DNA from: an uncultured cyanobacterium
GTDB lineage: Bacteria > Cyanobacteriota > Cyanobacteriia > Cyanobacteriales > Cyanobacteriaceae
NCBI GenBank assembly: GCA_963749915.1
Contig: CAVVOP010000032.1
Span: 64,001-128,000, forward strand
Length of the DNA stretch: 64,000 bases
Direction: 5' to 3'
The notes under the pieces were generated by a model. That model had not been told where the DNA came from. It made no database searches and worked only from the letters and a program-made list of their open reading frames with translations. Position 1 is the first letter of the stretch; every line of letters begins with the position of its first letter. Below, one piece after another: positions 21,702 through 54,130 of the stretch. The position numbers were made by a program, and so were the translations under genes.

Positions 21702-21735
21702 TCAACTTTCGACAATTATATTTTCCAAAACCCTC

Positions 21736-21848
21736 CTAGTGGTCTAGCAATTTTGAAATGAGGGATAGCAGGATTCTCCAAAATCTAAAATCCAAAATCC
21801 AAAATTATCCGTTCCCAGTCCCTCAAAACTATCTTGACAGACCACTAG
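21736..21848. mobile_element. MITE family A, copy 1 (TSD CTAG)
   Basis: CTAG-TGGTCTAGCAATTTTGAAATGAGGGA...TCTTGACAGACCA-CTAG; three further copies in window. Confidence 0.88.
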
Positions 21849-21862
21849 TATTGATAGGCAGC

Positions 21863-23383
21863 CTAATTAACTGGCTTCCTTTCCCATGATTTGATGGGGT
21901 GAATCTGGTTTTCACCACCGGCATCACAAAAACCACTGGGGAGATTAGAACAATCGACAGTACCAGCACTACCAATTATATCGGAGCCCCCCGTAGCACT
22001 GTAAGATCTAGCCCAAACTGCTCCTCTTATGGCACTTGCCCCAGTCATGGAAACTTGTGCTAGAGGGGCAAAGATAAACGCATTTGTACCTGAACCTCCA
22101 GTTAACCGCAAATCGTCGCTAACATATTGATAAATTTGGATTTGATCAGGAGTGCCGGGATTGCTTAGAGGACCGCCAATGCCCGAGCCCCCGTTAAGTG
22201 TTATTGCCCCGTGGGCGTAGATGATTAGTGTTGTCCCCGGCGTAACGACAATGCCAGCACCAGAGTGGGTAACTTTTAATTCGCCGTTCAAATATAATTT
22301 GACAGTCTGGCCGGGAGCATCGATGGTGAGGATATCTCCACCGCCAGTAAAATTAATGCCTGTCGAACCAGTGAGGTGATAAGTATTGTAAATGTTACTG
22401 ACAGTGCCACCGATTTCTGGGTGGTTGCAGGGGGCAGGAAGGGTGACGGCATTTCCGATTGCGTTTGAGGTGGTGCAGACTCCGGTTCCCGGGACGTTGG
22501 TGAGTAGCCCCTCCATCGGCAGGGTAGGAAATTTTTCGCTGCTGATGTCATAGGTAAAAGGGGGGGTTGGGATAACGCCGTTTACCTTTTGCTGTAATTT
22601 CAGAGCATCTATTTTACTAGTACTGCTGGTACAGGCAGCAGTGCCGGAACCGGGAGGATTATCAGCAGATACGGATGTAGAATCCTTAACATTTGTCTGG
22701 ATTTCACTATCCGAATGGCTGGTGCTCGAATCATTATTGCAAGTTATCCACAGTCCCTCTCCATTGAGATCACCACTGCCAGCACCAGGGGTTACGTCGA
22801 AGGAAACTTCCACACGAGTCGTTGATATTGCGGCACTAGCCGCGGTTTGATTAACTCGTCCTTCCACAATTAAAGTTCCTGTGCCCGCCGCCGTGGGATC
22901 TGGTGCAGTGGCGGGGTTACCGTCGTCATCAAAGCTGTAACTAATCAGTCTAAATTGTCCTTTACTGGGATCGCTAGGATCTGCATCTTGCCAACTTGTC
23001 TGTGCCGCATTCGTGATCTGTGTAGAATTAGTTACGTCTGGAATACTGCCTGCATTGGACCAACTGGCCGTAGAGGCGGTGTCGGGGCAAACCCCACTGG
23101 AATTGCGAGTGCCTTCACAATCGGGATAGACAGCAAGCTTGGGGTGGCTAACAAGAAAGGATTGATAACGGCTAATACCTGATTCCCCCAGGGCTTGAGC
23201 TTGTTTAGCATCTTCATCTATAGCGACTTGTAGCTTCCGTGATGCTGCACTCGTGAGTGAAGATAGCAATATTGTAAAAAACATCAAACCCAAACCAAGG
23301 GACATAAAAAATCCGAATCCATTCTCTTTGCCCTGATTAGGGAAGAGTATGAACCGAAATAAACTAATATTTTTATATCTCAT
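21863..23383 (-). CDS. PilX-like minor pilin with C-terminal beta-helical domain
   Basis: KENG|FGFFMSLGLGLM prepilin-like cleavage site lacking Glu+5, AQALGESGI (PilX N-terminal motif), GxLxVxG strands, FIFAPLA/GAVWA, terminal IKSWER. Confidence 0.7.
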   Translation of the reverse strand: MRYKNISLFRFILFPNQGKENGFGFFMSLGLGLMFFTILLSSLTSAASRKLQVAIDEDAKQAQALGESGISRYQSFLVSHPKLAVYPDCEGTRNSSGVCPDTASTASWSNAGSIPDVTNSTQITNAAQTSWQDADPSDPSKGQFRLISYSFDDDGNPATAPDPTAAGTGTLIVEGRVNQTAASAAISTTRVEVSFDVTPGAGSGDLNGEGLWITCNNDSSTSHSDSEIQTNVKDSTSVSADNPPGSGTAACTSSTSKIDALKLQQKVNGVIPTPPFTYDISSEKFPTLPMEGLLTNVPGTGVCTTSNAIGNAVTLPAPCNHPEIGGTVSNIYNTYHLTGSTGINFTGGGDILTIDAPGQTVKLYLNGELKVTHSGAGIVVTPGTTLIIYAHGAITLNGGSGIGGPLSNPGTPDQIQIYQYVSDDLRLTGGSGTNAFIFAPLAQVSMTGASAIRGAVWARSYSATGGSDIIGSAGTVDCSNLPSGFCDAGGENQIHPIKSWERKPVN

Positions 23384-23579
23384 TTTTTTTGCACCTTCAT
23401 ATTTAAATCAAAAATATTCGATATAAATTAGCTACTAACACTTCCCTAGGCTGAGTTTGATTTGGGTTAAATAACCAATGTCTTTTTAGGAAGAAATACA
23501 CTTCAGTTGAGAGTTACATGCTTTAACTAATCAATCATTTCATACATCTATTTAACCCCCTTTTTTACCTTTAAAAAAC

Positions 23580-23663
23580 CGTATAAATACCGTTTTTTAA
23601 GACAAATAATTATAAATTTATGATGAAGTTATATTTTTTATTCGTATAAATACTGTTTTTTAA
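23580..23663. promoter_or_regulatory. paired 21-bp direct repeats CGTATAAATAC(C/T)GTTTTTTAA, candidate operator
   Basis: Copies at 23580 and 23643 (63 bp apart) with palindromic core GTAT-AA-ATAC; related CGTAAAAATACCG at 34026. Confidence 0.5.
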
Positions 23664-23864
23664 AATTCTCTCCTTTATCTAATAGTTTATTTAACATAAC
23701 TGTATTAATTAAGAAGTATAAATTTAACAAATCTTTGCAAATTAAATCAAAAATAGTTGGGTATAGTTTGATAATATAAACACTTAAGTGCAATTTCAAT
23801 GGTACTTAAACAAAAATAACTAATAACTAATAACTAGTTACTTTAATTAGGAGATACTTAAAGA

Positions 23865-26800
23865 ATGGCTATTTTGAACTTTGGAGCAGAAGGAGCACGT
23901 GAGGAACGTGGTGCGGAAAGCTTTCAATTTCCTCAACCTTTACCTTCCCTCATCAACGATCTAGATGGGCTGACAGTAGTTATAACTGCAACCTATGACG
24001 ACCCTACAACCCCTGAAGAAGATGCTGTAACTGCTTTTCCTTACCTAGATGGATTATTTGTTGGTCGGCCGGGAGGGCTTGGTGTCGCTAGAGCTCTTAC
24101 CAACCAGAATCAAGCTAACCCTGGAGGTGACGATAACCTTACCGAAGGAGAAACGGTCAAACTCGCGTTCAGCGAGGAAGTAACATTTAGTGAATTATTA
24201 TTCAGAGATGAATTTCACCGTTCCTACATTGGACAAACGGCATTATTTCTAGACTATGCGTTAGTTGAGGTTGATGAAGAGAGGACATACTTTATACAAC
24301 TTATTGATCCTACTGCTGCCTGGGAGGATGCTAATAGCAATGGCATCTTCGATCCAGGTCTCGACACTCGAATTCCGCTTCTCCCTGAGGATGGCACACC
24401 TCCACCACTGACAGGTACCACGTTCGAGTTTTCCTATGGCGATGTGGAAGATGACGATGACCAGTATTATATAGACACCGCTACAATCTTCCGACTAGCT
24501 AAACTAGGGGATTTTGTCTGGAACGACCTCAACGCCAACGGCCTGCAAGAAGCGGATGAACCTGGCATTAATGGCGTCACGGTCAAACTGCTCAGCGCCA
24601 CCGGTGCAGTCCTCCAGACCACCACAACTGGTGCCGGCACCGATGACCCCGACACCCCGGGTGACGAAAGCAATGGCTATTACGAGTTCGCCGGCCTGAC
24701 TCCCGGTGTGGACTACAAGGTGATGTTCACCCAGCCCACCGGCTTCAATTCGGTCAGCCCCTTCCAGGCGGGGAATAATCCCGCCATCGATTCCGATGCC
24801 AATCCAGGTAATGGCCTGATGTCGGATGTAGTGGTGCTCGAATCAGGGAAATTCAACCGCACCATCGATGCGGGCTTCTACAACACTGCCAAACTAGGGG
24901 ATTTCGTCTGGGAAGACCTCAACGCCAACGGCATCCAAGAAGCGGGTGAACCCGGCATCAACGACGTCACGGTCAAACTGCTCGACGCCACTGGTGCAAC
25001 CCTCCAGACCACCACCACAGGCACCGGAACGGACGACCCCGACACCCCTGGTGACGAAAGCAATGGCTATTACGAATTCAGCGGTTTGACCCCTGGTGTG
25101 GGCTACACCGTGATGTTCGTCAATCCAGACGACGATGCCTACATGTTCAGCAAGCCCTTCGCTCCCGATGGTATGACACCGGCTGAGAACCCAACGACTG
25201 ACAGCAACGTCATCGATCCGATCAATGGTACCACCACTCCGGTGTCCCTCACTTCGGGCGATTTCGACCGCACCATCGATGCCGGTCTGTTCCGCAAGGG
25301 CTCGATCGGGGATTTCGTCTGGAACGACCTCAACGCCAACGGCATCCAGGAAGCGGATGAACCCGGCATAGCTAATGCGGAAGTAAAATTACAAGATTCA
25401 GCTGGAAACGTCTTAGATACTACTAGTACCGATGGGAATGGATTCTATTCCTTCACCAGCTTAATTCCTGGAGACTACAAAGTCATGTTTGTCCAGCCGG
25501 ATGGTTTTGATAGCGTTAGTCCCTTCCAGGCGGGGAATAATCCTGCAGTCGATTCTGATGCCGATCCAGGTAATGGCCTGATGTCGGATGTGTTCACCTT
25601 AGTTTCAGGAGAAGATAATCCTACTATTGATGCGGGCTTCTACAACACTGCCACACTAGGGGATTTCGTCTGGAACGACCTCAACGCCAACGGCATCCAA
25701 GAAGCGGATGAACCCGGCATAGCTAATACGGAAGTAAAATTACAAGATGCAGCTGGAAACGTCTTAGATACTACTAGTACCGATGGGAATGGATTCTATT
25801 CCTTCACCAGCTTAATTCCTGGGGACTACAAAGTCATGTTTGTCCAGCCGGATGGTTTTGATAGCGTTAGTCCCTTCCAGGCGGGGAATAATCCTGCCAT
25901 CGATTCCGATGCCAATCCAGGTAATGGCCTGATGTCCGATGTGTTCACCTTAGTTTCAGGAGAAGATAATCCTACTATTGATGCGGGCTTCTACAACACT
26001 GCCACACTAGGGGATTTCGTCTGGAACGACCTCAACGCCAACGGCATCCAAGAAGCGGATGAACCCGGCATAGCTAATACGGAAGTAAAATTACAAGATT
26101 CAGCTGGAAACGTCTTAGATACTACTAGTACCGATGGGAATGGATTCTATTCCTTCACCAGCTTAATTCCTGGGGACTACAAAGTCATGTTTGTCCAGCC
26201 GGATGGTTTTGATAGCGTTAGTCCCTTCCAGGCGGGGAATAATCCTGCCATCGATTCCGATGCCAATCCAGGTAATGGCCTGATGTCCGATGTGTTCACC
26301 TTAGTTTCAGGAGAAGATAATCCTACTATTGATGCGGGCTTCTACAACACTGCCACACTAGGGGATTTCGTCTGGAACGACCTCAACGCCAACGGCATCC
26401 AAGAAGCGGATGAACCCGGCATAGCTAATACGGAAGTAAAATTACAAGATGCAGCTGGAAACGTCTTAGATACTACTAGTACCGATGGGAATGGATTCTA
26501 TTCCTTCACCAGCTTAATTCCTGGGGACTACAAAGTCATGTTTGTCCAGCCGGATGGTTTTGATAGCGTTAGTCCCTTCCAGGCGGGGAATAATCCTGCC
26601 ATCGATTCCGATGCCAATCCAGGTAATGGCCTGATGTCCGATGTGTTCACCTTAGTTTCAGGAGAAGATAATCCTACTATTGATGCGGGCTTCTACAACA
26701 CTGCCACACTAGGGGATTTCGTCTGGAACGACCTCAACGCCAACGGCATCCAAGAAGCGGATGAACCCGGCATAGCTAATGCGGAAGTAAAATTACAAGA

Positions 26801-28415
26801 TGCAGCTGGAAACGTCTTAGATACTACTAGTACCGATGGGAATGGATTCTATTCCTTCACCAGCTTAATTCCTGGGGACTACAAAGTCATGTTTGTCCAG
26901 CCGGATGGTTTTGATAGCGTTAGTCCCTTCCAGGCGGGGAATAATCCTGCCATTGATTCCGATGCCAATCCAGATAATGGCCTGATGTCGGATGTAGTGG
27001 TGCTCAAATCGGGGGAATTCAACCGCACCATCGATGCGGGCTTCTTCACTGAGCCTCTTCTTCCTGATTTAGTCATTAAGAAAGAAGATGATGTAGATTG
27101 TGACATCAAGGATTTTTGTCCCACTGACTGTGATGGTGACGATCATCCTGGTGGTGGCACTGGCGGATCTAAAGGTACTAGTGGCACTGGCGGATCTAAA
27201 GGTACTAGTGGTACTGGCGGATCTAAAGGTACTAAAGGTACTAGCGGTTCTGGGGATAAAGGCACCAGCGGTAATAAAGGCACTCTTGGCACTAGTGGTT
27301 CTGGTGACAAAAGTACTGGTGGTTCCAAAGGTTCTGGTGGCCCCATTGATGGAGACTGTGGTTGTGATGATGCTCCCACTATCGGCGAAAAGATTAAATA
27401 CACTATTACTGTCAGCAATGATGGTGAAGGAATTGCTAAAGAGTTTAAGGTTCAAGACCATCTTCCTCAAGGGCTAAAATACGTAGATGGATCAATCTCT
27501 GATGACTTAATTGTAGCTCCAGCTAATGCTCCTACTGATCCAGAAGGCAATGATATCATCATCTCTGGCTTTAAGCCTCTCGCGTCCGGAGACAGCGTAT
27601 CCTTTATGTTCGAGGCTAAGATTACCGAAGATATTGGTGGCCATGACGGCGATGATGACTTATTATTCTGTCCTGGTGGTTCTAAAGGTACTGGTGGTTC
27701 TAAAGGTACTGGTGGTTCTAAAGGTACTGGTGGTTCTAAAGGTACTGGTGGTTCTAAAGGTACTGGCGGTTCTAAAGGTACTGGTGGTTCTAAAGGTACT
27801 GGCGGTGATAAAGGCACTAGCGGTACTGGCGGTTCCGGTGGTGACGATGATTCTCATGGTGACGATGTCTTCAAGAAAATCACCAATAAAGTGCGCGTTA
27901 CTTTAACTGATGGAGACGAATCTGACGTCAGTAATAACGAGGCTGAAGAACATACCCCCGTTAAAGTTGGCGGCCCTAAACTTAAGGGAGATGTCTGCGA
28001 TATCCTCGGTAAGCCACGGGAGCTAACTTTTGAGTACAACCCCGGTACTGATGTGCTAACGGGACAGAAAGAAGGAAAAGCCTTCGCAAACGGCACACCA
28101 GACGATGATGGTGAGTCCTATATCGTTGTGTCTAAGGAGGACAAACTGAAAGATGTCTTGAAATTAGAAGACAAAGATACGTTCTTTGAAGGTACCGTGT
28201 TTGAAGGCGACGACTTCACCGCGATCGCTGAAAAATTTGGTTCTGAAACCAACTTCTTTATCTTCGATGACGAGGCTGCCTTTAAAAGTGGTAGTGACCC
28301 ATTACAAACCCTTGGCTATCATACTTCTTGCTCGCAGCCCATTCAGCTAGGCGATATAATCGGCAGCGTAGAGTTGGTCGGTTATGTAGGTGAAGATGGC
28401 TCAGCTTTCGTGTAA
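23865..28415 (+). CDS. giant surface protein: N-terminal domain, 7 SdrD B-like repeats, DUF11 Ig-like domain with GGSKGT loops, C-terminal HTSCSQP domain
   Basis: GDFVWxDLNANG...IDAG repeats; IKYTITVSNDG/VQDHLPQGL (DUF11); AGGAG ribosome-binding site; no obvious signal peptide. Confidence 0.88.
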   Translation: MAILNFGAEGAREERGAESFQFPQPLPSLINDLDGLTVVITATYDDPTTPEEDAVTAFPYLDGLFVGRPGGLGVARALTNQNQANPGGDDNLTEGETVKLAFSEEVTFSELLFRDEFHRSYIGQTALFLDYALVEVDEERTYFIQLIDPTAAWEDANSNGIFDPGLDTRIPLLPEDGTPPPLTGTTFEFSYGDVEDDDDQYYIDTATIFRLAKLGDFVWNDLNANGLQEADEPGINGVTVKLLSATGAVLQTTTTGAGTDDPDTPGDESNGYYEFAGLTPGVDYKVMFTQPTGFNSVSPFQAGNNPAIDSDANPGNGLMSDVVVLESGKFNRTIDAGFYNTAKLGDFVWEDLNANGIQEAGEPGINDVTVKLLDATGATLQTTTTGTGTDDPDTPGDESNGYYEFSGLTPGVGYTVMFVNPDDDAYMFSKPFAPDGMTPAENPTTDSNVIDPINGTTTPVSLTSGDFDRTIDAGLFRKGSIGDFVWNDLNANGIQEADEPGIANAEVKLQDSAGNVLDTTSTDGNGFYSFTSLIPGDYKVMFVQPDGFDSVSPFQAGNNPAVDSDADPGNGLMSDVFTLVSGEDNPTIDAGFYNTATLGDFVWNDLNANGIQEADEPGIANTEVKLQDAAGNVLDTTSTDGNGFYSFTSLIPGDYKVMFVQPDGFDSVSPFQAGNNPAIDSDANPGNGLMSDVFTLVSGEDNPTIDAGFYNTATLGDFVWNDLNANGIQEADEPGIANTEVKLQDSAGNVLDTTSTDGNGFYSFTSLIPGDYKVMFVQPDGFDSVSPFQAGNNPAIDSDANPGNGLMSDVFTLVSGEDNPTIDAGFYNTATLGDFVWNDLNANGIQEADEPGIANTEVKLQDAAGNVLDTTSTDGNGFYSFTSLIPGDYKVMFVQPDGFDSVSPFQAGNNPAIDSDANPGNGLMSDVFTLVSGEDNPTIDAGFYNTATLGDFVWNDLNANGIQEADEPGIANAEVKLQDAAGNVLDTTSTDGNGFYSFTSLIPGDYKVMFVQPDGFDSVSPFQAGNNPAIDSDANPDNGLMSDVVVLKSGEFNRTIDAGFFTEPLLPDLVIKKEDDVDCDIKDFCPTDCDGDDHPGGGTGGSKGTSGTGGSKGTSGTGGSKGTKGTSGSGDKGTSGNKGTLGTSGSGDKSTGGSKGSGGPIDGDCGCDDAPTIGEKIKYTITVSNDGEGIAKEFKVQDHLPQGLKYVDGSISDDLIVAPANAPTDPEGNDIIISGFKPLASGDSVSFMFEAKITEDIGGHDGDDDLLFCPGGSKGTGGSKGTGGSKGTGGSKGTGGSKGTGGSKGTGGSKGTGGDKGTSGTGGSGGDDDSHGDDVFKKITNKVRVTLTDGDESDVSNNEAEEHTPVKVGGPKLKGDVCDILGKPRELTFEYNPGTDVLTGQKEGKAFANGTPDDDGESYIVVSKEDKLKDVLKLEDKDTFFEGTVFEGDDFTAIAEKFGSETNFFIFDDEAAFKSGSDPLQTLGYHTSCSQPIQLGDIIGSVELVGYVGEDGSAFV
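25310..27050 (+). repeat. five near-identical 351-bp intragenic tandem repeats
   Basis: CTGCCACACTAGGGGATTTC recurs at 25648, 25999, 26350 and 26701. Confidence 0.95.
27675..27800 (+). repeat. 18-bp tandem repeat x7 encoding (GGSKGT)7
   Basis: GG(T/C)GGTTCTAAAGGTACT units; a degenerate block is also at ~27150-27340. Confidence 0.95.
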
Positions 28416-28454
28416 GAATTCAGTTCCCTCTAAATCTCTGAAGCTGGTACTGTC

Positions 28455-28560
28455 CTAGTGGTCTGCCAATTTTGAAATGAGGGATAAAACAATCCTCCAA
28501 AATCCAAAATCCAAAATTATCCGTTCCCAGTCCCTCAAAACTATCTTGACAGACCACTAG
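28455..28560. mobile_element. MITE family A, copy 2 (TSD CTAG)
   Basis: Near-identical to 21736-21848. Confidence 0.88.
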
Positions 28561-28762
28561 ACTGATATAACCCCTGTTAGACATAACGTTTAGCGGGGGT
28601 TTTTGATTACTAGAAAAAACGAAATTGTAATTGAAAATCCACTATTGTAATTAATATTAATACAAATTAATTCAAATCTCTTGGCAAAGCTTCGAGATCG
28701 AAGTACAATTAAGGTCGAATAAGAAGTTGAATGCCCCTATAAGTAGAAAAAAAGAAGAATAG

Positions 28763-29302
28763 ATGAACGAAAAAATTGTTTATTTAATGCGAGGATTGCC
28801 CTGTTGTGGCAAAAGCTATACATCTCTTAGGTTAGCGGGAGTAAATGGGGTAGTCTGTGAAGCTGATGAATATTTTTACTTTCAAGTAGGAGATGACCCC
28901 TTTGAATATGATTGGGATGATGATTTAAGTGATGAAGCAGATCAATGGAGCTTTGAAAAGTTTATGGATGCTATTGATGACGAGAAGTCCCCTATTGTGG
29001 TTGATTGGGGGCACGCTTTATCTAGGACGACTCAAATCTATGCCCAATATGCCGTAGAACATGGATATAAAGTTGAATTAAAAGAGCCAGATTCTTGGTG
29101 GTGGCAAGAAATTAGCGTTTTGCTCAAATATAAAGAACATACTTGGCCGGTTTTAGAGGATTGGGCCTACAAACTGGTAAAAAAGAGTCGCTCTACAGGT
29201 CATCGTGTCCCATTATCTGTATTTCTTGAACGGATGAAATATTGGAAGTGGGATCTTACAGTGGAGGAGATACTTAATTATAAAAATTGGAAAAAGCGTT
29301 AG
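28763..29302 (+). CDS. AAA_33 / N4BP2-like (polynucleotide kinase-fold) P-loop kinase, paralog 1
   Basis: YLMRGLPCCGKS, ADEYF, SPIVVD, YAVEHGYKVELKEPDSWW, HRVP, LTVEEILN. Confidence 0.8.
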   Translation: MNEKIVYLMRGLPCCGKSYTSLRLAGVNGVVCEADEYFYFQVGDDPFEYDWDDDLSDEADQWSFEKFMDAIDDEKSPIVVDWGHALSRTTQIYAQYAVEHGYKVELKEPDSWWWQEISVLLKYKEHTWPVLEDWAYKLVKKSRSTGHRVPLSVFLERMKYWKWDLTVEEILNYKNWKKR

Positions 29303-29410
29303 AATACTCTGGTAATCTGAAAGAAAATAGCTGAATAGCAATGGATTTCGCTGAAAATGTCCTAGTTCATCAGTTAAAGATTATTAATCGTTACTATTCC
29401 TAAATTAATT

Positions 29411-29965
29411 ATGATAACTGTACCCAAAAATAGAAAATTGGTTTATTTAATGAGGGGATTACCTAGTTCCGGTAAAAGCTACACAGCTTCTCAATTAGTC
29501 AGAAAAAGAGGAGTAATCTGCGAAACTGAACAATACTTTTATACTGAAGTGGGAAATGACCCAACTAAGTTTGACTATAAACCAGAGTTGATGGAAATAG
29601 CCCGTGAATGGAATTTTGGGAAATTTAAACAGGCGATCGCCGAAGAAATCTCTCCGATCGTCGTTGATCGGGGTAATGGACTCAATCAGGAAACTAAACG
29701 CTATGCCCAATATGCCGTAGAACATAGCTATAAAGTTGAATTAAAAGAGCCAGATTCTTTATGGTGGCAAGAAATTAGAGTATTACTCAAACATAAAGAA
29801 TATACTTGGCCTATTTTAGAAGTGTGGGCGAAAGAACTAGAAAAAATGAGTCGTTCTACTCATAGGGTGCCATCATCTGTATTTTTGAGTCGCATGAAAT
29901 CTTGGAAATGGGATCTTACTGTCGAAGATATTCTCAATTGGGAGGAAATTCCGCCAACAAGCTGA
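29411..29965 (+). CDS. AAA_33 / N4BP2-like P-loop kinase, paralog 2
   Basis: YLMRGLPSSGKS, SPIVVDRGN, HRVP; colinear with paralog 1. Confidence 0.8.
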   Translation: MITVPKNRKLVYLMRGLPSSGKSYTASQLVRKRGVICETEQYFYTEVGNDPTKFDYKPELMEIAREWNFGKFKQAIAEEISPIVVDRGNGLNQETKRYAQYAVEHSYKVELKEPDSLWWQEIRVLLKHKEYTWPILEVWAKELEKMSRSTHRVPSSVFLSRMKSWKWDLTVEDILNWEEIPPTS

Positions 29966-30304
29966 ATAAAGACCATTTTTCGTTTGTACTATCTCCCTTG
30001 TCTGCTGTCCTTCGTTCCTTAGTTAGTTATTAAAAATTTACCTTTTTTAACTAGACATGGTTAGTATTTCTCAGTTATACTTAAGGGTATATTAAAAAAA
30101 TACTTAAGGAATTATTTTTAAGTAGCGAGCAAATAAATAGAACGAAAACAAGCTAAATCTTATTTTATTACTGACGAAACAGCAGTCTTAAAATTATGGC
30201 TACAGCAGTTAAATATTTAAGCAGTAAGAGCTTAATCGGTCTGTTAACCATCAATAAACTATCATTACAAACACCTACATACGGTGGAAAAGATATCAAT
30301 ACTC

Positions 30305-30567
30305 CTACTGGTCTATCAATTTTGAAATGAGGGATAGGGAAATTCTCCAAAATCCAAAAGCGGTCAGACCCCAGCACGCGGTCAACGCGCAGGCGATGCG
30401 ACCCTGGGGATTTTTGCAATCCGCCAACGTCCGGTACAAGCGTCTGGGGAAACCCCAGATGACACGGACTCAGGAATGCGCACTACGAGAGGGAATGCTG
30501 ACCAAGAGAGCCAAAATCCAAAATTATCCGTTCCCAGTTTCTCAAAACTATCTTGACAGACCACTAC
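30305..30567. mobile_element. MITE family A, copy 3 (TSD CTAC) with 151-bp GC-rich internal insert
   Basis: Same termini as copies 1 and 2; extra segment 30360-30510 between two CCAAAA. Confidence 0.85.
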
Positions 30568-30597
30568 CGTAAGCCCTATTTAATCTATTAAGCCCCT

Positions 30598-33561
30598 ATG
30601 TTTTCTCTGTATGAACCCCAAAATACCTCGATTCTTGAAGCACCTATAGAAAATTCATATGTCTACCCCTTTGACGGCGGCTATAATAATTTGGCTTACG
30701 TCGACTGGGGAATCGCCAACAGTCCACTCTTAAATATGGCCCCTTTGGCTTATGAAGATGAATATTCAACCCCGACCGGGAGCGATCGCCCTAATCCTCG
30801 AGTAATCAGCAATGCCCTCGCCCAACAAAATGAAAGTATCCCTGATCCACGGGGACTGACTAATTTTATTTGGGCTTGGGGACAATTTCTTGATCATGAT
30901 TTAGACCTAACTCCAGAACTATCTTACGAGGAAGCCTCTAGCCAAGACCGATTCATTAACATTCCCGTACCCGCTGGCGATCCTTACCTTGATCCATCAG
31001 GAACAGGCACCATGACCATCGAGATGCGGGATACTGTGTACATGGAAGGCACTGGCACTGATACGGAAAATCCTCGCCAATTGCCTAACATCGTCACCAG
31101 TTGGCTGGACGGCTCTCAAATCTACGGCTCCAGTGAGGAACGGGCTAAGGCTTTGCGTACTCTTTCAGGGGGACAAATGCGGGTAAGCGATGGTAATTTG
31201 TTGCCTCTGAATACAACAGGTATGGAAAACGACAATCCCAGCCAACGCCCAGCTGAATCTTTGTTTGCGGCTGGGGATGTCAGGGCCAATGAAAATGTGG
31301 TGCTCAGCTCCATGCATACCCTGTTTATGCGGGAACATAATCGCTTAGCTGAGGAACTTGCGGCAGTCCACCCTGACTGGACAGATGAGCAACTTTATCA
31401 GCGGGCAAGGCAAATCAACATCGCCCAAATACAGAGCATTACTTACAAAGAATATTTACCAACCCTTCTAGGGGTAGATACACTACCAGACTACAACGGC
31501 TATGAACCAACTGTGAATCCTGGTATTAGTCGCACCTTTTCGACGGCGGCTTTTCGGCTAGGGCACACCCAACTCAGCACTGAAATTGTGCGGTTAGATA
31601 ACGACGGCAATGTCATTCCTTCTGGAAATCTCACCCTAGCAGAGTCGTTTTTTCCTGGCAGTGGAGCCTTGCAGGAAGCCGGAATAGATCCGATCCTGCG
31701 GGGATTGGCGGCGTCCGCTAGTCAGCGAGTCGATACCGAAACCATTAATGATGTGCGGAACTTGCTGTTTGGTTTTGGTCCCGCTGCCAGTGCCCGCGAT
31801 CTCTTTGCCATCAATATTCAACGGGGGCGGGCGAATGGTCTATGTGATTACAACACTTTGCGGACAGCCTTTGGGCTGAAACGGGTACAGAGCTTTGCTG
31901 AAATTACCAGTGATCTCGGTAAACAAGCTGCTCTCGAATCCCTGTATAGCTCGGTTGATAACATCGACGCTTTTGTCGGTATGCTAGCGGAGGATTTGCA
32001 CCCTGGTGCCAGTGTGGGAGAAACGGTTGCGGCAGTCCTGGTCGATCAGTTCAGTCGCTTACGGGCAGGCGATCGCTTCTACTACGAAAATCACTTCTCT
32101 CCCAATGAAATCGCCGCCCTAGAAACCATCAAACTCTCAGACATTATCTTAAGGAACACCGATACTCAGGATATTCAAGGCAATGTCTTCCATTCTGGCG
32201 ATATTGAATTGGAGACATTCATCACTCTGCTACCACCTCGTTCCACCTTGGATCTGACCGAGACTATGGATAAGCCTCAGACTTTGACTTTTACCTATAC
32301 CGGGGGGAATCTTCTCCTCACTTCCCAGAAAGAAGACAAAGCCAACCTTTGGGGTACTCCAGATGATGATCCTTTCGCCTACGTCATTGTGGCAGATAAG
32401 GGGAAACCTGAGAAAATCCTAGAGGGTAAGGCTAGCACATACTTTTCTGGGGAGGTAGCTTGGGGAGAACAATTAATTGCCGATGCAGCGATGGCGGAAA
32501 AGAAAAAGTTTAAGTCTGAGACGTTCCTTTTGCTATACGAGGATGAAGCTGCCTATTTGCGGGGGGACAAACCCTTGCAGGTTGCCGAGTATCACACTTC
32601 AGGTTCTCAGCCCATGAGTTTGGGTGATGTTGTGGGCGGCTTTACCCTATCAGGTTATGGTGACAAAAACGGAAAAGAAATAGGCTTACCTGCACCTGTA
32701 ACAGCTACAGCCAATACCGAGGACGACCTTGAGCTTATGGCTGAAAGTCCTCTGCTAGTAACTTATCAGGTGACCAACCCTGGTCAACTTGTCCTAAAAG
32801 CAATTGAGTTATATCCTCAATGGGGAAGCATTCCCCATTGGCTGGGGGGCGATGTCAATGGTAATAATTTACTTGATTCTGGCGAGACTTGGGAATACAT
32901 GGCTCTGGCAACGGCATTGCCAGGACAACAGGAAATCAAGATGGAGGTACAGGCGATCGCTACTAATGATACTGGTATTCCTTTGGGGTTACCCAGCCTC
33001 AAAACCAGTGACTCACTCCATTATACGGGTATGCAGGTGGCTCCTACAGGGGAGATGAGTCAAGTCTTGGGAGAGCTCAAAGCTCTTACCTTTCAATATG
33101 TGGCAACTGATACGGTATTAACAGGAGGAAAGGATAATAACCAAGACGGCAAAGCTAAGATTGAAAGCGGTGAACCTGATGACGATTCCAGTGCCTACAT
33201 TGTGGTTTCCCAGAGCAATAATGTGGAGGACATTAAGAAAGGGGACAAGCCATTGTACTTTGCTGGTACCGTGGAGGTTGGTCAATCTTTCACCGCTAGT
33301 TTAGACTTTGCCAATGAAGACAAGTTCGAGAAAGATACACGGATCTTAGTCTTCGAGGATGAAGCAGCCTTCATTGCTGGTGCTGAGCCACTCCAAGTAT
33401 CTAAATATAAGACCGATGGCTCTCAACCGATGACTATCGGTGATGTCATCGGTGCAGTTCAACTAAGGGAATACCAAGGCACGAATGGGGGATACGATGA
33501 TCCTGAACTTGATCCCCTCACTGGTCAAATTGGCACTGGTTTCTCCGTAATTGGTCTTTGA
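30598..33561 (+). CDS. animal-type heme peroxidase (peroxidase-cyclooxygenase superfamily) fused to C-terminal Ig-like and two HTSxSQP-type domains
   Basis: WGQFLDHDL (distal Gln/His), GDVRANEN (distal Arg), REHNRLA, AFRLGHT (proximal His), NIQRGR, QFSRLRAGDRFYYE. Confidence 0.92.
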   Translation: MFSLYEPQNTSILEAPIENSYVYPFDGGYNNLAYVDWGIANSPLLNMAPLAYEDEYSTPTGSDRPNPRVISNALAQQNESIPDPRGLTNFIWAWGQFLDHDLDLTPELSYEEASSQDRFINIPVPAGDPYLDPSGTGTMTIEMRDTVYMEGTGTDTENPRQLPNIVTSWLDGSQIYGSSEERAKALRTLSGGQMRVSDGNLLPLNTTGMENDNPSQRPAESLFAAGDVRANENVVLSSMHTLFMREHNRLAEELAAVHPDWTDEQLYQRARQINIAQIQSITYKEYLPTLLGVDTLPDYNGYEPTVNPGISRTFSTAAFRLGHTQLSTEIVRLDNDGNVIPSGNLTLAESFFPGSGALQEAGIDPILRGLAASASQRVDTETINDVRNLLFGFGPAASARDLFAINIQRGRANGLCDYNTLRTAFGLKRVQSFAEITSDLGKQAALESLYSSVDNIDAFVGMLAEDLHPGASVGETVAAVLVDQFSRLRAGDRFYYENHFSPNEIAALETIKLSDIILRNTDTQDIQGNVFHSGDIELETFITLLPPRSTLDLTETMDKPQTLTFTYTGGNLLLTSQKEDKANLWGTPDDDPFAYVIVADKGKPEKILEGKASTYFSGEVAWGEQLIADAAMAEKKKFKSETFLLLYEDEAAYLRGDKPLQVAEYHTSGSQPMSLGDVVGGFTLSGYGDKNGKEIGLPAPVTATANTEDDLELMAESPLLVTYQVTNPGQLVLKAIELYPQWGSIPHWLGGDVNGNNLLDSGETWEYMALATALPGQQEIKMEVQAIATNDTGIPLGLPSLKTSDSLHYTGMQVAPTGEMSQVLGELKALTFQYVATDTVLTGGKDNNQDGKAKIESGEPDDDSSAYIVVSQSNNVEDIKKGDKPLYFAGTVEVGQSFTASLDFANEDKFEKDTRILVFEDEAAFIAGAEPLQVSKYKTDGSQPMTIGDVIGAVQLREYQGTNGGYDDPELDPLTGQIGTGFSVIGL

Positions 33562-33683
33562 CACTCTCACCGTTAACCCTACGGGTGTAACGGGAGATTC
33601 TTGGCTCACAGACTCTTAACTAGATTAAACAAGTTTAGTTGCTTAACCCCCGTCAGACCGTCTCCACACACGGTTTGGAAAGT
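33558..33683 (-). ncRNA. orphan IS605-type right end / TnpB omegaRNA-like scaffold
   Basis: Minus strand reads TGTGGAGACGGTCTGACGGGG...CTAGTTAAGAGTCTGTGAGCCAAGAATCTCCCGTTACACCCGTAGGGTTAACGGTGAGAGTGTCAA, the layout typical of tnpB 3' ends; no tnpB ORF adjacent. Confidence 0.7.
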
Positions 33684-34361
33684 TATGAAAATTTCTGGTG
33701 GGAAGGCAGAGGGCAGAAGGTAATAAATTCGTGAAAATTTTCCTTCTGAATTCTAAATTCTAAATTCTAAATTCTAAATTTCCCTAACAATGCCGTTTTC
33801 GGCACTAACCGAGCAGTATTGGTAAGGGTTTCTGTTTTCGTTTTCTCCTTTAAAAGGAGCGGTTAGCCAACTAAATGGACAGAAATCAGAGGATTCCTCC
33901 TTTGTGAAACAATATTGCCTGGGAAGTTTTTCACGGTTTCTAAGGAAAACTTGAACATCGAGTATAAAGTTTCTGTAAAGACTTTATATAAAGATTGTGT
34001 AAAATTCTAGCATTTTTAAAGATTCCGTAAAATACCGGAAAAAACTAGATGTTAAAAAAAAAAGCCTTATACTCAAAAACGAAAATAGGAATTACTTAGA
34101 AAAACTACTTAGGCAGATTACTTACGACAGATCCAAATAAAATTTTTATTTGTGCCATTTGAATGCGATCGCAGCTAATAGTTCAGGTCCTGCGTTGTAG
34201 GCTAATAATGTTGGCTGGAACCTTGTTCAAAGCTTCTAGGGAAACTTGAACATCGAGACAGTCAAGAAAAATGTGTACTCATAACGTATAGTTAACTTTA
34301 AGTAAGTACACTTAACTTTAAGTACGTAAAAAAATTTACTGAATAAGGAATGAAATAGAAG

Positions 34362-37300
34362 ATGGTAAAGATTGGAGGTATTAACCTCGGCAAACTCACG
34401 GAATTTTCGATTTTCGTCTCTGACGGTAGCTCCAAAGCCAAAATTCAATCTTCTTCGCCGGGTTACTCTGGTGATTGGGCGGTCAACGGACTCGTCGCTG
34501 AAGAGGACACTTCTGGCAACTTGGCCTATGGCGGAAACATCTACACGAATGCGACTGGGCCTTCAGCATTCGGGAAATGGCAAGACATCCTGGATAATAA
34601 TGTTGGCCAAGCCTTTGGTGTAACGGGTCAGACAGACCTGATCAATGGCCTCAAATCAACCCTCAATCAGGCGTTCCTGGATATCAATGCGCTACCCGTA
34701 TCTGCTGGATTCAACGGAGTATCAGCTAATTCCCTTAATGGGCTAAATACTACCAATAAGATATCCGAAACTTTTGTTGTTAACATAACCAACTTCAGTG
34801 TCAGTAGTCCGATCAGGATTACGGGCGATCCTGACGATGTCTTCATCTTTCGTTGGGATACGGATGCCAATTTCAGCAATGGTTACGATGGTGAGGTTAA
34901 ATTTTCAGGGGGCAACGGTTTCGTCCCCTTAGGTGGTTTATCTCCCGCTAATTTCATCCACGTTGCCGGGGATATTAACACCTCCGGTGGTGGCAAGCCC
35001 CCCACCGACTTCAATTTTCCCCAGGGTCCCCGCCTCGGCAATGGGCAGGGTGATCTGGTAAGCGGTTCTGAAGATTGGCCTGACAGCCAGGGTGGAGGTT
35101 TCTTTACTGGCTACTGGCTGACCACCGGCAAACCGGACAACGCTCCCGATGCCAACCACTCGGTTTACTGGGGAAAGACTTCAAGCCAGAGCAACGGTCG
35201 AATCGTCGGCGGCTGGTATACCATCACCAATGATTTCACCCTAACATCCGGCACCGCAGCAGTGTATGTTGGTCCCGTCGATTATGGTGATTTACCTCAA
35301 CCCAAGTACAAAACCACTCGGAGCAATAATGGACCAGGCCACGTCATCACCGATACCTTATTCCTGGGCACTAACTTTGACATGGATATTGACCCAGAAG
35401 GGGACGGACAGCCCAATGCTACCGCTACGGGGGATAATCTCGCCAATCTCGACGACGAGACGGCCGTAACCATTCCCACCCTGCTTGCCGGACAGAATGC
35501 AACCTTCAACGTTGAAGTCACGAACAAGACTGGGAAAAATGCCACCCTCTATGGGTTCATTGATTGGAACATGGATGGGGATTTCGCTGACACGGGCGAG
35601 ACGGCAACGAAGATCGTGGCCAATAACACGATGGGGAACGTCACCCTCCCATTCAATGTGCCTGCGAATGCCGTTCTGGGCATGGACTTAGGTGCTCGCT
35701 TCCGCCTCAGTACGGCTACTGGACTGGGACCCACCGATCCGCAAGGAGCCAACGGACCCATCCCCGCACCAGATGGGGAAGTGGAAGACTACCTCGTAAA
35801 GGTACAACAACCTACCGCCAAACTGGGCGACTTCGTCTGGGAAGACCTCAACGCCAACGGCCTGCAAGAAGCGGATGAACCCGGCATCAACGGCGTCACG
35901 GTCAAACTGCTCGACGCCAGCGGTGCAACCCTCCAGACCACCACAACTGGTGCCGGCACCAATGACCCCAACACCCCGGGTGACGAAAGCAACGGCTATT
36001 ACGAATTCAGCGGTCTGACTCCTGGTGTGGGCTACACCGTGATGTTCGTCAATCCAGACGACGAGGGCCCTGATGCCTACATGTTCAGCGAGCCCTTCGC
36101 TCCCACTGGTATGACACCGGCTCAGAACCCAACGACTGACAGCAACGTCATCGATACGATCAATGGCACCACCACTCCGGTGTTCCTCATTCCGGACGAG
36201 TTCGACCGCACCATCGATGCCGGTCTGTTCCGCAAGGGCTCGATCGGGGATTTCGTCTGGAACGACCTCAACGCCAACGGTATCCAGAATGCAGGGGAAC
36301 CCGGCATCAACGGCGTCACGGTCAAACTGCTCGACGCCACCACCGGTGCAACCCTCCAGACCACCACAACTGGTGCCGGCACCAATGACCCCAACACCCC
36401 GGGCGACGAACGCAACGGCTATTACGAATTCACCGGCCTGACTCCCGGTGTGAACTACAAGGTGATGTTCACCCAGCCCGCCGGCTTCAATTCAGTCAGT
36501 CCCTTCCAGGCGGGGAATAATCCCGCCATCGATTCCGATGCCAATCCAGATGATGGCCTGATGTCGGATGTAGTGGTGCTCGAATCGGGGGAATTCAACC
36601 GCACCATCGATGCGGGCTTCTACAACACTGCCAAACTAGGGGATTTCATCTGGGAAGACCTCAACGCCAACGGCCTGCAAGAAGCGGGTGAACCCGGCAT
36701 TAACGGCGTCACGGTCAAACTGCTCGACGCCACCACCGGTGCAATCCTCCAGACCACCACAACTGGTGCCGGCACCAATGACCCCACCACCCCGGGTGAC
36801 GAACGCAACGGCTATTACGAATTCACCGGTCTGACTCCCGGTGTGGGCTACACCGTGATGTTCGTCAATCCAGACGACGAGGGCCCTGATGCCTACATGT
36901 TCAGCAAGCCCTTCGCTCCCACTGGTATGACACCGGCTCAGAACCCAACGACTGACAGCAACGTCATCGATCCGATCAATGGTACCACCACTCCGGTGTT
37001 CCTCACTTCGGGCGAGTTCGACCGCACCATCGATGCCGGTCTGTTCCGCAAGGGCTCGATCGGGGATTTCGTCTGGAACGACCTCAACGCCAACGGCCTG
37101 CAAGAAGCGGATGAACCCGGCATTAACGGCGTCACAGTCAAACTGCTCGACGCCACCACCGGTGCAACCCTCCAGACCACCACAACTGGTGCCGGCACCA
37201 ATGACCCCACCACCCCGGGTGACGAACGCAACGGCTATTACCAATTCACCGGCCTGACTCCCGGTGTGAACTACAAGGTGATGTTCACCCAGCCCGCCGG

Positions 37301-39221
37301 CTTCAATTCAGTCAGTCCCTTCCAGGCGGGGAATAATCCCGCCATCGATTCCGATGCCAATCCAGATGATGGCCTGATGTCGGATGTAGTGGTGCTCGAA
37401 TCGGGGGAATTCAACCGCACCATCGATGCGGGCTTCTACAACACTGCCAAACTGGGGGATTTCGTCTGGCTGGATAAGAACGCCAACGGTATCCAGAATG
37501 CAGGGGAACCCGGCATCAACGGCGTCACGGTCAAACTGCTCGACGCCACCACCGGTGCAATCCTCCAGACCACCACAACTGGTGCCGGCACCAATGACCC
37601 CACCACCCCGGGTGACGAACGCAACGGCTATTACGAATTCACCGGTCTGACTCCCGGTGTGGAGTACAAGGTGATGTTCGTCAATCCAGACGATGAGGGC
37701 CCTGATGCCTATATGTTCAGTCCCCAGTATGCACCCACTGGTGTCGCACCGGGTCAAAACCCAACCATCGACAGCAACGCCGATCCCGAAAATGGCATGA
37801 CAGACATCGTCACCCTTACTTCTGGGGAATTCAACCGCACCATCGATGCCGGTCTGTTCCGCAAGGGTTCGATCCACGCCTTCGGCTTCCTCGATGAGAA
37901 CGGCGACGGCAAATTGAATCACAACGAAGGTGCTTTCCCCGATGATCCGGGCAAGACCCTGGTCCTCCAAGGAGACGTGAACGGCGACGGCATCTCCGAG
38001 ACAGTCACCCAAAAGACTGTGGATGGCATGGCCTCATTCGAAGGGCTGACCCCCGGAACCTATACCCTGAGGGAGTTCCCCATTCCCAACGGCTACACAC
38101 TGACGACGACACCCAACAGACGCACCTTCACCGTGCTCAGCGGCCAGGAACTCGTCTACGCTAATGGAGCGGCGAACCTGCCACCAGGAGATCAGCGCAC
38201 GGAAATCAATATAGGCCGCCGACTACAGTGGGGTAACGCCCCAGAAACAGGGGACCTGGAGATTATCAAGACGGCTAATCGCTACCAAATATCTCCTGGA
38301 GAAAACATAACCTATACTATCACAGTTAGTAACACTGGACAACTCACCGCCACCAATGCTCAGGTGGTAGATATGTTCTCCACCGCCCTGACCAACGTAA
38401 CCTGGACTAGCGAAGCTTTTGACGGAGCCACAAATAATGAGGCCAATGGAAGTGGCGATATTGACGACTTGGTGACCCTGCCATCGGGCAGCCGCATCAC
38501 CTATACAGTCGTGGGTACGTTAGCTCCAGTCAACGAGCTATCTGAATTTAGCCTGTTCGACACAGGGGTTAACGGTACCAACCTAGGTCAGAGCATTACT
38601 ACTCTTAACGGCGTTACAGCTGACGCTTTCTACTACAATGGCCCTGCTGATTATCAGGCCACCAACAATGTCACAGACACTGTCCTCTGGCAACGGAATC
38701 AAAGAAACGATCGCGGACTTGGGGTTATTTCTGATGGCGAGACCTTACCTACAAATAACGGCGATGTCAACGAGATCAGCAACCAGCTAAACAAAGACGT
38801 TCTCCGACTGGCTAAAGCCGATGAAGACCAATGGCGTGCCCTTTGGGTCTCTTCTCTCGATCAAAACGGTACTGGAGGCGCTGAAAAAGGAAGGGTTTAC
38901 TGGTCTAACGATCCTACTCCCAACCTAGATACACTAATAAATGGCGGACAATCATTTGCCTTTGAGTATGGCGACTTCGGCACTAGCGTAGAAGGCAATA
39001 TCCTTACCCTAACCCAGGCATCGGGATTTGATTTGGACGCTGAGTATGTATTCTTCACTGCTGGATTGGGCACAACCGATACTGGTACTAATAACGATTA
39101 CCTTGTCTGGCAAGCAACAACAACATTGACTAACACGGCAATGGTAACACCACCCCCTGGTTTCACCGACAATAACCCTAACAATAACATGAGTACAGTT
39201 ATGACTGAGATTGTCTTCTAA
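34362..39221 (+). CDS. giant surface protein: beta-solenoid-like N-terminus, GEVED domain, 5+1 SdrD B-like repeats, split DUF11 domain
   Basis: GFIDWNMDGDF...ARFRLST...GEVEDY; GDFVW repeats alternating with 816-bp period (36241/37057); ITYTITVSNTG. Confidence 0.88.
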   Translation: MVKIGGINLGKLTEFSIFVSDGSSKAKIQSSSPGYSGDWAVNGLVAEEDTSGNLAYGGNIYTNATGPSAFGKWQDILDNNVGQAFGVTGQTDLINGLKSTLNQAFLDINALPVSAGFNGVSANSLNGLNTTNKISETFVVNITNFSVSSPIRITGDPDDVFIFRWDTDANFSNGYDGEVKFSGGNGFVPLGGLSPANFIHVAGDINTSGGGKPPTDFNFPQGPRLGNGQGDLVSGSEDWPDSQGGGFFTGYWLTTGKPDNAPDANHSVYWGKTSSQSNGRIVGGWYTITNDFTLTSGTAAVYVGPVDYGDLPQPKYKTTRSNNGPGHVITDTLFLGTNFDMDIDPEGDGQPNATATGDNLANLDDETAVTIPTLLAGQNATFNVEVTNKTGKNATLYGFIDWNMDGDFADTGETATKIVANNTMGNVTLPFNVPANAVLGMDLGARFRLSTATGLGPTDPQGANGPIPAPDGEVEDYLVKVQQPTAKLGDFVWEDLNANGLQEADEPGINGVTVKLLDASGATLQTTTTGAGTNDPNTPGDESNGYYEFSGLTPGVGYTVMFVNPDDEGPDAYMFSEPFAPTGMTPAQNPTTDSNVIDTINGTTTPVFLIPDEFDRTIDAGLFRKGSIGDFVWNDLNANGIQNAGEPGINGVTVKLLDATTGATLQTTTTGAGTNDPNTPGDERNGYYEFTGLTPGVNYKVMFTQPAGFNSVSPFQAGNNPAIDSDANPDDGLMSDVVVLESGEFNRTIDAGFYNTAKLGDFIWEDLNANGLQEAGEPGINGVTVKLLDATTGAILQTTTTGAGTNDPTTPGDERNGYYEFTGLTPGVGYTVMFVNPDDEGPDAYMFSKPFAPTGMTPAQNPTTDSNVIDPINGTTTPVFLTSGEFDRTIDAGLFRKGSIGDFVWNDLNANGLQEADEPGINGVTVKLLDATTGATLQTTTTGAGTNDPTTPGDERNGYYQFTGLTPGVNYKVMFTQPAGFNSVSPFQAGNNPAIDSDANPDDGLMSDVVVLESGEFNRTIDAGFYNTAKLGDFVWLDKNANGIQNAGEPGINGVTVKLLDATTGAILQTTTTGAGTNDPTTPGDERNGYYEFTGLTPGVEYKVMFVNPDDEGPDAYMFSPQYAPTGVAPGQNPTIDSNADPENGMTDIVTLTSGEFNRTIDAGLFRKGSIHAFGFLDENGDGKLNHNEGAFPDDPGKTLVLQGDVNGDGISETVTQKTVDGMASFEGLTPGTYTLREFPIPNGYTLTTTPNRRTFTVLSGQELVYANGAANLPPGDQRTEINIGRRLQWGNAPETGDLEIIKTANRYQISPGENITYTITVSNTGQLTATNAQVVDMFSTALTNVTWTSEAFDGATNNEANGSGDIDDLVTLPSGSRITYTVVGTLAPVNELSEFSLFDTGVNGTNLGQSITTLNGVTADAFYYNGPADYQATNNVTDTVLWQRNQRNDRGLGVISDGETLPTNNGDVNEISNQLNKDVLRLAKADEDQWRALWVSSLDQNGTGGAEKGRVYWSNDPTPNLDTLINGGQSFAFEYGDFGTSVEGNILTLTQASGFDLDAEYVFFTAGLGTTDTGTNNDYLVWQATTTLTNTAMVTPPPGFTDNNPNNNMSTVMTEIVF

Positions 39222-39268
39222 CAATCATTTAGTTTGTTATTGGCAATATCTTAGGGAGTCTTTTAAAG

Positions 39269-39291
39269 GCCAGCTGCCATAGCTGGCTTTT
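39269..39291 (+). terminator. probable rho-independent terminator
   Basis: GCCAGCT-gccat-AGCTGGC followed by TTTT, downstream of the 1619-aa gene. Confidence 0.55.
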
Positions 39292-53979: not shown

Positions 53980-54130
53980 ACCTCATCGTGTCATTGCCAG
54001 TGCCACCCACGATCAAGTTATTACCGAGGCCACCCCTTAGGAGATCATTGCCAGCTTGCCCATAAAGGACATCATTGCCATTCCCTCCAAAAAGCACATC
54101 ATTACCGGCTTCACCGTAGAGACGATCATT
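53978..54130 (-). pseudogene. RTX/hemolysin-type Ca-binding repeat gene fragment
   Basis: [50 protein letters not shown]; in-frame stop immediately upstream, no start codon. Confidence 0.75.

Follow-up and report, generated by a model that had tools for sequence, protein, structure and literature searches.

Gram-positive adhesins such as the staphylococcal Sdr/Clf proteins and the streptococcal serine-rich adhesins carry Ser-Asp or serine-rich repeats, which are glycosylated by enzymes encoded next to them, the adjacent glycosyltransferases. A repeat-bearing surface protein may also share its cluster with a kinase, as in Bacillus subtilis, where CotH phosphorylates the Ser/Lys-rich repeats of CotB and CotG (described in a part of PMC7821199). 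A comparable arrangement was found in an uncultured cyanobacterium of the family Cyanobacteriaceae (assembly GCA_963749915.1, contig CAVVOP010000032.1, positions 64,001 to 128,000; this whole stretch of 64,000 nucleotides, nt, is called the window below), in which an island of six genes encodes a giant protein with Gly-Ser-rich loops, giant A, followed by a pair of small kinase-like proteins with the predicted fold of T4 polynucleotide kinase (Pnk). As an association of genes, the kinase-repeat module has good support; that the kinases directly phosphorylate Ser/Thr in the Gly-Ser-rich loops of the giant protein before its export is a reading on which our judgement is evenly divided. The features concerned are given below in window coordinates, with lengths in amino acids (aa).

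21736..39291: the island, six intact open reading frames (ORFs) by ORF calls, with trpC/GT2 on one side and lpdA on the other
23865..28415, plus strand: giant A, 1516 aa, with Pfam matches to seven SdrD_B, DUF11 (with two Gly/Ser/Lys/Thr loops) and a C-terminal DUF7467
27150..27341, plus strand: first GGSKGT-type loop, at aa 1096-1159, a proposed substrate of the kinases
27675..27842, plus strand: second GGSKGT loop, at aa 1271-1326, likewise a proposed substrate
28763..29302, plus strand: kinase 1, 179 aa, P-loop protein of the AAA_33 type, acidic, with the Asp of the T4 Pnk RDD motif kept and three conserved Arg lost
29411..29965, plus strand: kinase 2, 184 aa, AAA_33, 64% identical to kinase 1, with the family-typical Arg kept

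In the terms of the same partial source (PMC7821199), the island resembles the CotH system in that a kinase gene is clustered with that of a Ser/Lys-rich repeat surface protein, and differs from it in that CotH is a spore coat kinase with a protein-kinase-like fold, whereas the island kinases have the P-loop Pnk fold and gave no CotH match; the carrier is here a giant adhesin-like protein of a Gram-negative bacterium, and the kinase activity is predicted. With the Sdr/Clf and serine-rich adhesins the island shares the SdrD-B stalk, the Ser-rich repeats and the neighbouring gene for a modifying enzyme, but its giants have neither the LPXTG anchor nor the ligand-binding A region, the partner is a kinase, and the whole-protein SdrC/SdrD models of NCBIfam were far below their cut-offs (630 bits against 1700 and 534 against 2500). 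The structural model of kinase 2 (predicted local distance difference test, pLDDT, 89.9) matched T4 Pnk (Z 13.0, root-mean-square deviation 2.7, 141 aligned residues), bacterial Pnkp (Z 12.2) and O-phosphoseryl-tRNA kinase (Z 11.0), with which it has in common the predicted fold, the Walker A motif and the Asp position of the RDD motif; the differences are the low identity (11-19%), the extra helices of the island kinase and its neighbours, which are giant proteins of predicted export. The RNA-repair partners, ligase and Hen1, were not seen among the recurring neighbour clusters of the kinase loci, and a sequence search of the PDB with kinase 2 alone gave no match.

The kinase family comprises 550 homologues; 90 loci were found in 185,579 genomes, of which 80 were kept, with 70 of the 80 in Planctomycetota to judge by their titles. 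Even there the family is rare, being present in none of 300 sampled genomes besides the central one, and the query with kinase 2 gave no match in 400 other cyanobacteria. The commonest neighbour cluster of the kinase, seen in 29 of the 80 loci, consists of giant proteins of the RTX/cadherin/PKD type. At least three SD[GAK] units occur nearby in 28 loci, mostly of Planctomycetota, and within these the array-coding gene adjoins the kinase 25 times, lying upstream on the same strand in 23 cases; the arrays lie a median of 130 aa from the C-terminus of their carriers, and the loops of giant A are C-terminus-near as well. A strict three-unit DNA pattern was present in 17/80 kinase loci (0.90 Mb; expected 0.01) and in 5 of 80 large genomes devoid of the kinase (6 sites in 563 Mb), and a four-unit pattern in 9/80 loci versus 1/300 genomes, where no called gene frame was seen to hold the single site. 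The carriers, among which are RTX, cadherin, DUF11, dockerin and SdrD-B proteins, fall into nine groups by their C-terminal 450 aa; many of the planctomycete ones are RTX-tailed, one carrier (L102) is from the cultured Novipirellula rosea, and the array-linked kinases are scattered over the kinase tree. One of the nine groups pairs giant A, via DUF7467, with a protein of Phycisphaeraceae (L074:1-4203) that combines GSDK arrays, DUF7467 and DUF7507 and is followed by a GNAT-kinase fusion. Kinase-bearing genomes have arrays away from the kinase too, for example G425, G428, G429, G441 and G454. Five cyanobacteria that have related giants showed no such kinase (0/5), and the fetched parts of their giants no arrays. 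The genome-level tally (21/39) was not used as the main count, since it is biased, about half of the genomes having been chosen after their neighbours were known. Thus, the suggestion of the preliminary description that the kinases may modify the Ser/Thr/Lys loops has been strengthened in its genomic part, the family adjoining Gly-Ser-Asp/Lys repeat proteins across phyla, with the phosphorylation itself standing as a prediction. Giant genes were also observed in proteobacterial kinase-bearing genomes (L184:4235-20000, L047:4161-10239, L055:5002-6898), with further genes after them that we take to resemble the HlyD/peptidase-M50 export components.

The unit that recurs across phyla is a gene of a giant Gly-Ser-loop repeat protein followed by a gene of a T4-Pnk-fold kinase-like protein. 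In the first step of the proposed mechanism, the cytoplasmic kinases would phosphorylate the still unfolded giant A, ahead of an export independent of a signal peptide; in the second, a tandem duplication would have been followed by the replacement of three Arg of kinase 1 by Asp, Trp and Ser and by the acquisition of an acidic segment, the acidity matching the loops in which Lys replaces Asp; in the third, the phosphorylated loops may serve as mixed-charge, Ca2+-binding adhesive patches on the SdrD-B stalk. Of the two proteins, kinase 2 exceeds the AAA_33 cut-off and kinase 1 stays below it (E-value 2e-4). The Walker A motif GxxxxGK[ST] (G16..G21, K22, S23) and the Walker B D86 are conserved. 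Asp40, the residue aligned to the RDD motif and presumably catalytic, as we assume for the Pnk Asp, is Asp in 248/250 homologues and in kinase 1. Arg87 is likewise kept in 248/250 homologues, with Trp only in kinase 1 and its orthologue P0013, which alone among the 250 combine D65, W87 and H89, and the segment 38-80 of kinase 1 carries the lowest charge of all the 250 (-16; median -4); by analogy with the Pnk fold, these positions (65, 87, 89) and this segment may line the acceptor site. P0013 is 87% identical to kinase 1, and P0007 83% identical to kinase 2, each with a longest listed contig of 2,916 bases, which suggests that the kinase pair exists elsewhere; the four proteins formed one branch with a support of 86 in a quick, midpoint-rooted tree of 78 of the 80 locus kinases and 15 proteins, from which no donor is claimed. 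The co-fold of kinase 1 with ATP, Mg and a 44-residue loop peptide gave a score of 0.00 and weighs neither way. Giant A has 11 GGSKG units, and the length of its loops varies between strains: in a wild strain (run X1), an in-frame deletion of 27 nt was observed at 27795, in the second loop.

A reverse search, in which metagenomes were scanned for three GG[ST]KG[ST] units, returned 44 loci. In one family of (GGTKGS)n proteins, a divergent APH-like gene stands alongside in 9 of the 11 loci with at least 1.5 kb upstream, plus L149, and its D-x4-N and DFE motifs are conserved; a PDB search with the APH-like alignment gave no sequence match. A GNAT gene accompanies five loci of this family, with 30-33% identity to the GNAT of L074. 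The strongest argument for the loops as substrates is that two unrelated kinase-like families adjoin similar loops. The (GGTKGS)n proteins (L136:6509-10900, L148, L149, L151, L159, L161, L164, L166, L169, L175) are unannotated and share a YHNGGVEG motif; these high-GC metagenome contigs, with their divergent APH-like gene and often an Acetyltransf_6 GNAT, were recorded as a separate candidate modification module.

Several points weigh against direct phosphorylation of the loops. Among solved structures, the enzymes nearest in fold work on the ends of nucleic acids, on serine bound to tRNA or on sugars, and not on proteins. The array was not seen in 52/80 kinase loci (41/65 of those with at least 1.5 kb upstream), and the counts overstate independence, because a single homologous cassette at the C-terminus is common to 17 of the 28 carriers; such an array was found in one (GSDG) of the best 150 DUF7467 proteins. 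None of the 44 GG[ST]KG[ST] metagenome loci holds the P-loop kinase family, so that the Lys-type pairing with it rests on this locus and L074; even in the APH-like case, two loci of one organism (L133/L170) lack that gene, and the APH label is weak, being obtained for 3/10 members with the best E-value of 2e-5. Giant A and kinase 1 need not be co-transcribed, since a mobile element and a terminator-like hairpin lie between them. Export of the giants is predicted from the domain content, with no identified signal; giant A has no evident signal peptide and no RTX repeats, and the genome holds a TolC-like gene. Kinase 2, in turn, has Glu at the position of Asp40 (1/250), kept as Asp in its orthologue P0007, and may thus be weakened, decaying or specialised. 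The widest form of the proposal is doubtful: that the Pnk-fold family is a dedicated Ser/Thr kinase polyphosphorylating adhesin loops in Planctomycetota, Acidobacteriota and, via transfer, in this cyanobacterium, with the APH-like kinase/GNAT doing the same on (GGTKGS)n, a duplicated kinase 1 whose pocket charge was reversed to read Lys loops and, possibly, a bacterial counterpart of the underwater glue of caddisflies, cured by the tethered peroxidase of the island.

Another explanation, considered unlikely, has the kinase as a hitchhiker that travels as a mobile cassette with the 3' end of the giant genes; it would be a common Pnk-like enzyme whose substrate is a nucleic-acid end or a small molecule, and the loops would be unmodified, flexible spacers. 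The best fold matches, T4 Pnk, bacterial Pnkp, PFK2 and zeta toxin, are in line with it, as are the nearest Atlas clusters of AAA_33 proteins, many of them viral, the weak match to the CARF-AAA defence model (E-value 3e-4), the array-less loci and the one cassette behind 17 of the 28 carriers, and the two copies of the mobile element that flank the kinase pair. Against it are the arrays next to the kinase, which are found in carriers unrelated to each other and with the genes in either orientation, the presence of arrays away from the kinase in kinase-bearing genomes, compared with just 5/80 of the kinase-less ones, and the unrelated phosphotransferase-like gene that adjoins the Lys-type repeats elsewhere. 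It is quite improbable that the action is indirect, namely, that Ser/Thr are glycosylated or acylated first and that the phosphate is then placed by the kinase on the sugar or on an activated donor. The fold group of the kinase does include sugar and nucleotide-sugar kinases, L074 and five other loci have a GNAT, either fused or next door, a glycosyltransferase and a methyltransferase adjoin a GGSKGS repeat gene in L160, and the glycosylated Gram-positive adhesins offer a parallel; but no glycosyltransferase family is prominent among the recurring neighbours of the 80 kinase loci (by clustering, with part of the neighbours scanned), neither the GNAT nor the APH-like gene has a homologue in this genome, and the adjacent GT2, which was tried as an island member and rejected, is a backbone gene found beside trpC in 4/5 congeners.

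The other features of the island, to which direct phosphorylation of the loops makes no appeal, are the following.

21863..23383, minus strand: PilX-like minor-pilin-type protein, 506 aa, with a C-terminal DUF7305 (E-value 9e-13)
28011..28385, plus strand: DUF7467 of giant A, a predicted beta-sandwich (model pLDDT 91.5)
30598..33561, plus strand: heme peroxidase of the peroxidase-cyclooxygenase superfamily, 987 aa, with the catalytic domain (aa 25-531) and two DUF7467
34362..39221, plus strand: giant B, 1619 aa, with GEVED, six SdrD_B, SpaA and DUF11, and with no GGSKGT loops
21736..21848, no strand assigned: miniature inverted-repeat element (MITE-like), copy 1, with inverted arms and the ends CTAGTGGTCT...AGACCACTAG
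28455..28560, no strand assigned: MITE copy 2, followed by the terminator-like hairpin at 28569-28601
30305..30567, no strand assigned: MITE copy 3, carrying an insert of about 150 nt
23579..23592, plus strand: upstream motif CCGTATAAATACCG, 285 nt before giant A, with a looser second copy at 23643
34025..34037, plus strand: upstream motif CCGTAAAATACCG, 336 nt before giant B

The peroxidase belongs, by its catalytic domain, to An_peroxidase (517.6 bits against a cut-off of 25, aa 25-531), and its active-site motifs look intact, with Q96, D99 and H100, whose distal roles we partly presume, and with R229, E232, H323 and N406 present. The roles of the R-x-x-E motif and of the proximal His and its Asn partner are given in a part of PMC4420034. 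The domain is closest to CyanoPOX (PDB 8s6c, E-value 4e-147; 4e-90 to 6erc), an iodide-preferring lactoperoxidase-like enzyme according to passages of PMC11776367; with CyanoPOX, LspPOX and DdPoxA, the lactoperoxidase-like enzymes of bacteria and amoebae, it shares the catalytic domain and the distal and proximal motifs, but it has the DUF7467 tail instead of dockerin or RTX repeats. Multi-domain bacterial members of the superfamily with calcium-binding tails are known (parts of PMC4420034 and PMC3396595); the island protein, with one catalytic domain and no HemolysinCabind or dockerin match, is unlike the long peroxicins and peroxidockerins. Among the congeners, a peroxidase was matched in 1/6, with 38% identity and among different genes.

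The shared domain of giant A and the peroxidase, as it had been perceived from the sequence, proved to be DUF7467, the copy of giant A being 44% identical to each copy of the peroxidase. The fold search gave weak best matches, nearly all of them to C2 domains (Z 6.3 or less), and DUF7467 is, on its model, a possible Ca2+/lipid-binding module. All the three copies of this genome are in the island; elsewhere, DUF7467 was found in 13/400 other genomes of the order and in 0/19 of the family. The domain has 1,262 representatives, of the best 150 of which two have a peroxidase domain. As a secretion signal DUF7467 was rejected, being found also in proteins of the type IX secretion system and with signal peptides, and C-terminal in 77/150. 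Fusions of peroxidase and DUF7467 recur in four other proteins (P0177, P0178, P0180, P0314), which stand outside the comparison of peroxidase and giant neighbourhoods. In that comparison, no peroxidase was found in any of the 80 kinase loci, and the five cyanobacteria with related giants encode it in 4/5 genomes, always on other contigs; the presence of peroxidases in 26/39 kinase-bearing genomes is uninformative, as it has no control. Cross-linking of the giants by the peroxidase, which had been put forward in the preliminary description, is thus unsupported, as is the link of the peroxidase to the giants generally, given that no conserved linkage was found in this comparison and that the giants are Tyr-poor (2.4-2.8%, with no Tyr in the loops). 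The peroxidase is likely to be an exported oxidiser of halides or phenols with a DUF7467 tail from the same adhesin toolkit, rather than a dedicated cross-linker.

Caddisfly silk, with its phosphoserine H-fibroin and peroxinectin (in a part of PMC12976744), likewise unites phosphorylated repeats and a heme peroxidase in an underwater adhesive, an analogy only; the difference is that the peroxidase here and the kinase-repeat unit are not found together in other genomes. A co-exported matrix of all six genes, with the peroxidase docking on the giants and cross-linking or halogenating them as in this silk, is very improbable, for although the genes cluster in one island, giant A and the peroxidase hold the only three DUF7467 of the genome, the motif precedes both giants, the active site is intact, the fusion recurs in the four proteins and wild sediment runs contain fragments of both giants along with fragments of the peroxidase, against it stand the 0/80 kinase loci and the lack of a peroxidase on the related-giant contigs, the second DUF7467 of the peroxidase, nearer to that of the giant of G102 (68%) than to that of giant A (44%), the low Tyr content, the lack of the strict motif before the peroxidase and the kinases, and the iodide preference reported in part of PMC11776367 for CyanoPOX, the closest characterised enzyme.

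The repeats noticed earlier as common to both giants are indeed SdrD-B ones, up to 94% identical over 300 nt; giant B contains no GGSKG unit and is likely a co-regulated second adhesin. Its N-terminal domain (34362-35276) resembles ice-binding-like beta-solenoids (Atlas score 0.92, 167 shared features), a lead only, as no Pfam match was found, PF11999 (ice-binding DUF3494) included. The family of this head is joined in one Atlas cluster with DUF7305, the domain found in the pilin-like protein; the two proteins may thus provide adhesive tips. In G102, a single protein combines SdrD-B repeats, the head of giant B (48%) and two DUF7467. The RTX nonapeptide repeats (PF00353) were not matched in the three large proteins of the island, which, to judge from their domain matches, draw on one toolkit.

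The upstream motif, CCGTA-W(3-4)-TACCG, is present before both giant genes, as had been noted, and occurs at three sites of the 4.69-Mb genome versus 0-1 in three shuffles, a count that is no independent test, because the pattern was derived from those very sites. The third site is in a duplicated stretch preceding an RTX gene on contig C27. The strict motif was not found before the peroxidase or kinase genes, and a four-way alignment of the upstream regions revealed nothing past the short motif. The MITE is a 110-nt inverted-repeat element with CTAG ends, and, with its 27 near-full copies in the genome and an empty site of copy 1 (joint 21735-21845) in a contig of a wild conspecific, where it is thus polymorphic, it is considered mobile filler; the MITEs were rejected as module-specific parts.

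The pilin-like protein has a hydrophobic stretch after G|F, seen by eye, and its kinship to PilX is our assumption; no PilX match in Pfam was found in it or its three paralogues. A 70% identical copy of its gene, with the upstream 257 nt 95% identical, sits on C27, where it is flanked by two RTX genes, one of them serralysin-like, and distant relatives occur in 11/30 other genomes; the gene is probably a passenger. The C27 region (L036:3263-17228, genome G000) appears as a second cluster of exported-protein genes, with the pilin-like copy, two RTX proteins (the serralysin-like one of 1594 aa and one of 404 aa) and genes labelled by eye as filamentous-haemagglutinin-like.

All the six genes are present and intact between trpC/GT2 and lpdA, as described before; their higher guanine-plus-cytosine (GC) content holds for four (0.48-0.54 versus the genome median of 0.389) and fails for both kinase genes, which are at the median (0.39 and 0.38). 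The distance between trpC and lpdA exceeds 1 Mb in three congeners, so that the flanks mark no clean insertion site, and after trpC(-GT2) the island genes were not found in any of five congeners. The window is cyanobacterial in character, with 3.4 HIP1 sites per 10 kb and a gene for PsbP. The Rfam scan of the island matched no family, and its promoter and terminator counts were below the shuffle means. No RNA run contained the region. The wild-run contigs were too fragmented to span the island, and in run X1 the kinases were uncovered with 37% of the run read, which carries no weight for their absence. As a co-inherited set, the six genes came up, within what was compared, against the refuting condition of the preliminary description, a lack of co-occurrence in other genomes, with no peroxidase in the kinase loci, no such kinase in the five cyanobacteria with related giants and the pilin-like copy located elsewhere; the island is a patchwork, specific to its lineage, of genes whose products are likely exported, and not a conserved six-gene system. 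Farther along the window, a low-GC gene for a 1765-aa protein with TPR/clathrin-like repeats (46466-51763) and what is probably a broken gene, an RTX repeat fragment within an open frame of 50 aa (54038-54130), were observed; in G026, a 1542-aa DUF7507/DUF11 protein (L030:11712-16340) is encoded about 10 kb from lpdA, which may be chance.

No description of the kinase-repeat link was found in the open-access literature text, nor of such a system in the covered passages of a review of extracellular bacterial protein modifications (PMC10450907). If true, direct phosphorylation of the loops would give a new role and substrate class to the Pnk fold and a function to the unannotated kinase family, with the acidic kinase 1 predicted to prefer the Lys loops and the typical family members the Asp loops. 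A small soluble bacterial kinase of low-complexity repeats would then be useful for producing phosphorylated adhesive proteins. In planctomycetes and mat cyanobacteria, the giant surface proteins would be expected to carry heavily phosphorylated loops, with a bearing on Ca2+ binding, mineral adhesion and biofilm cohesion.

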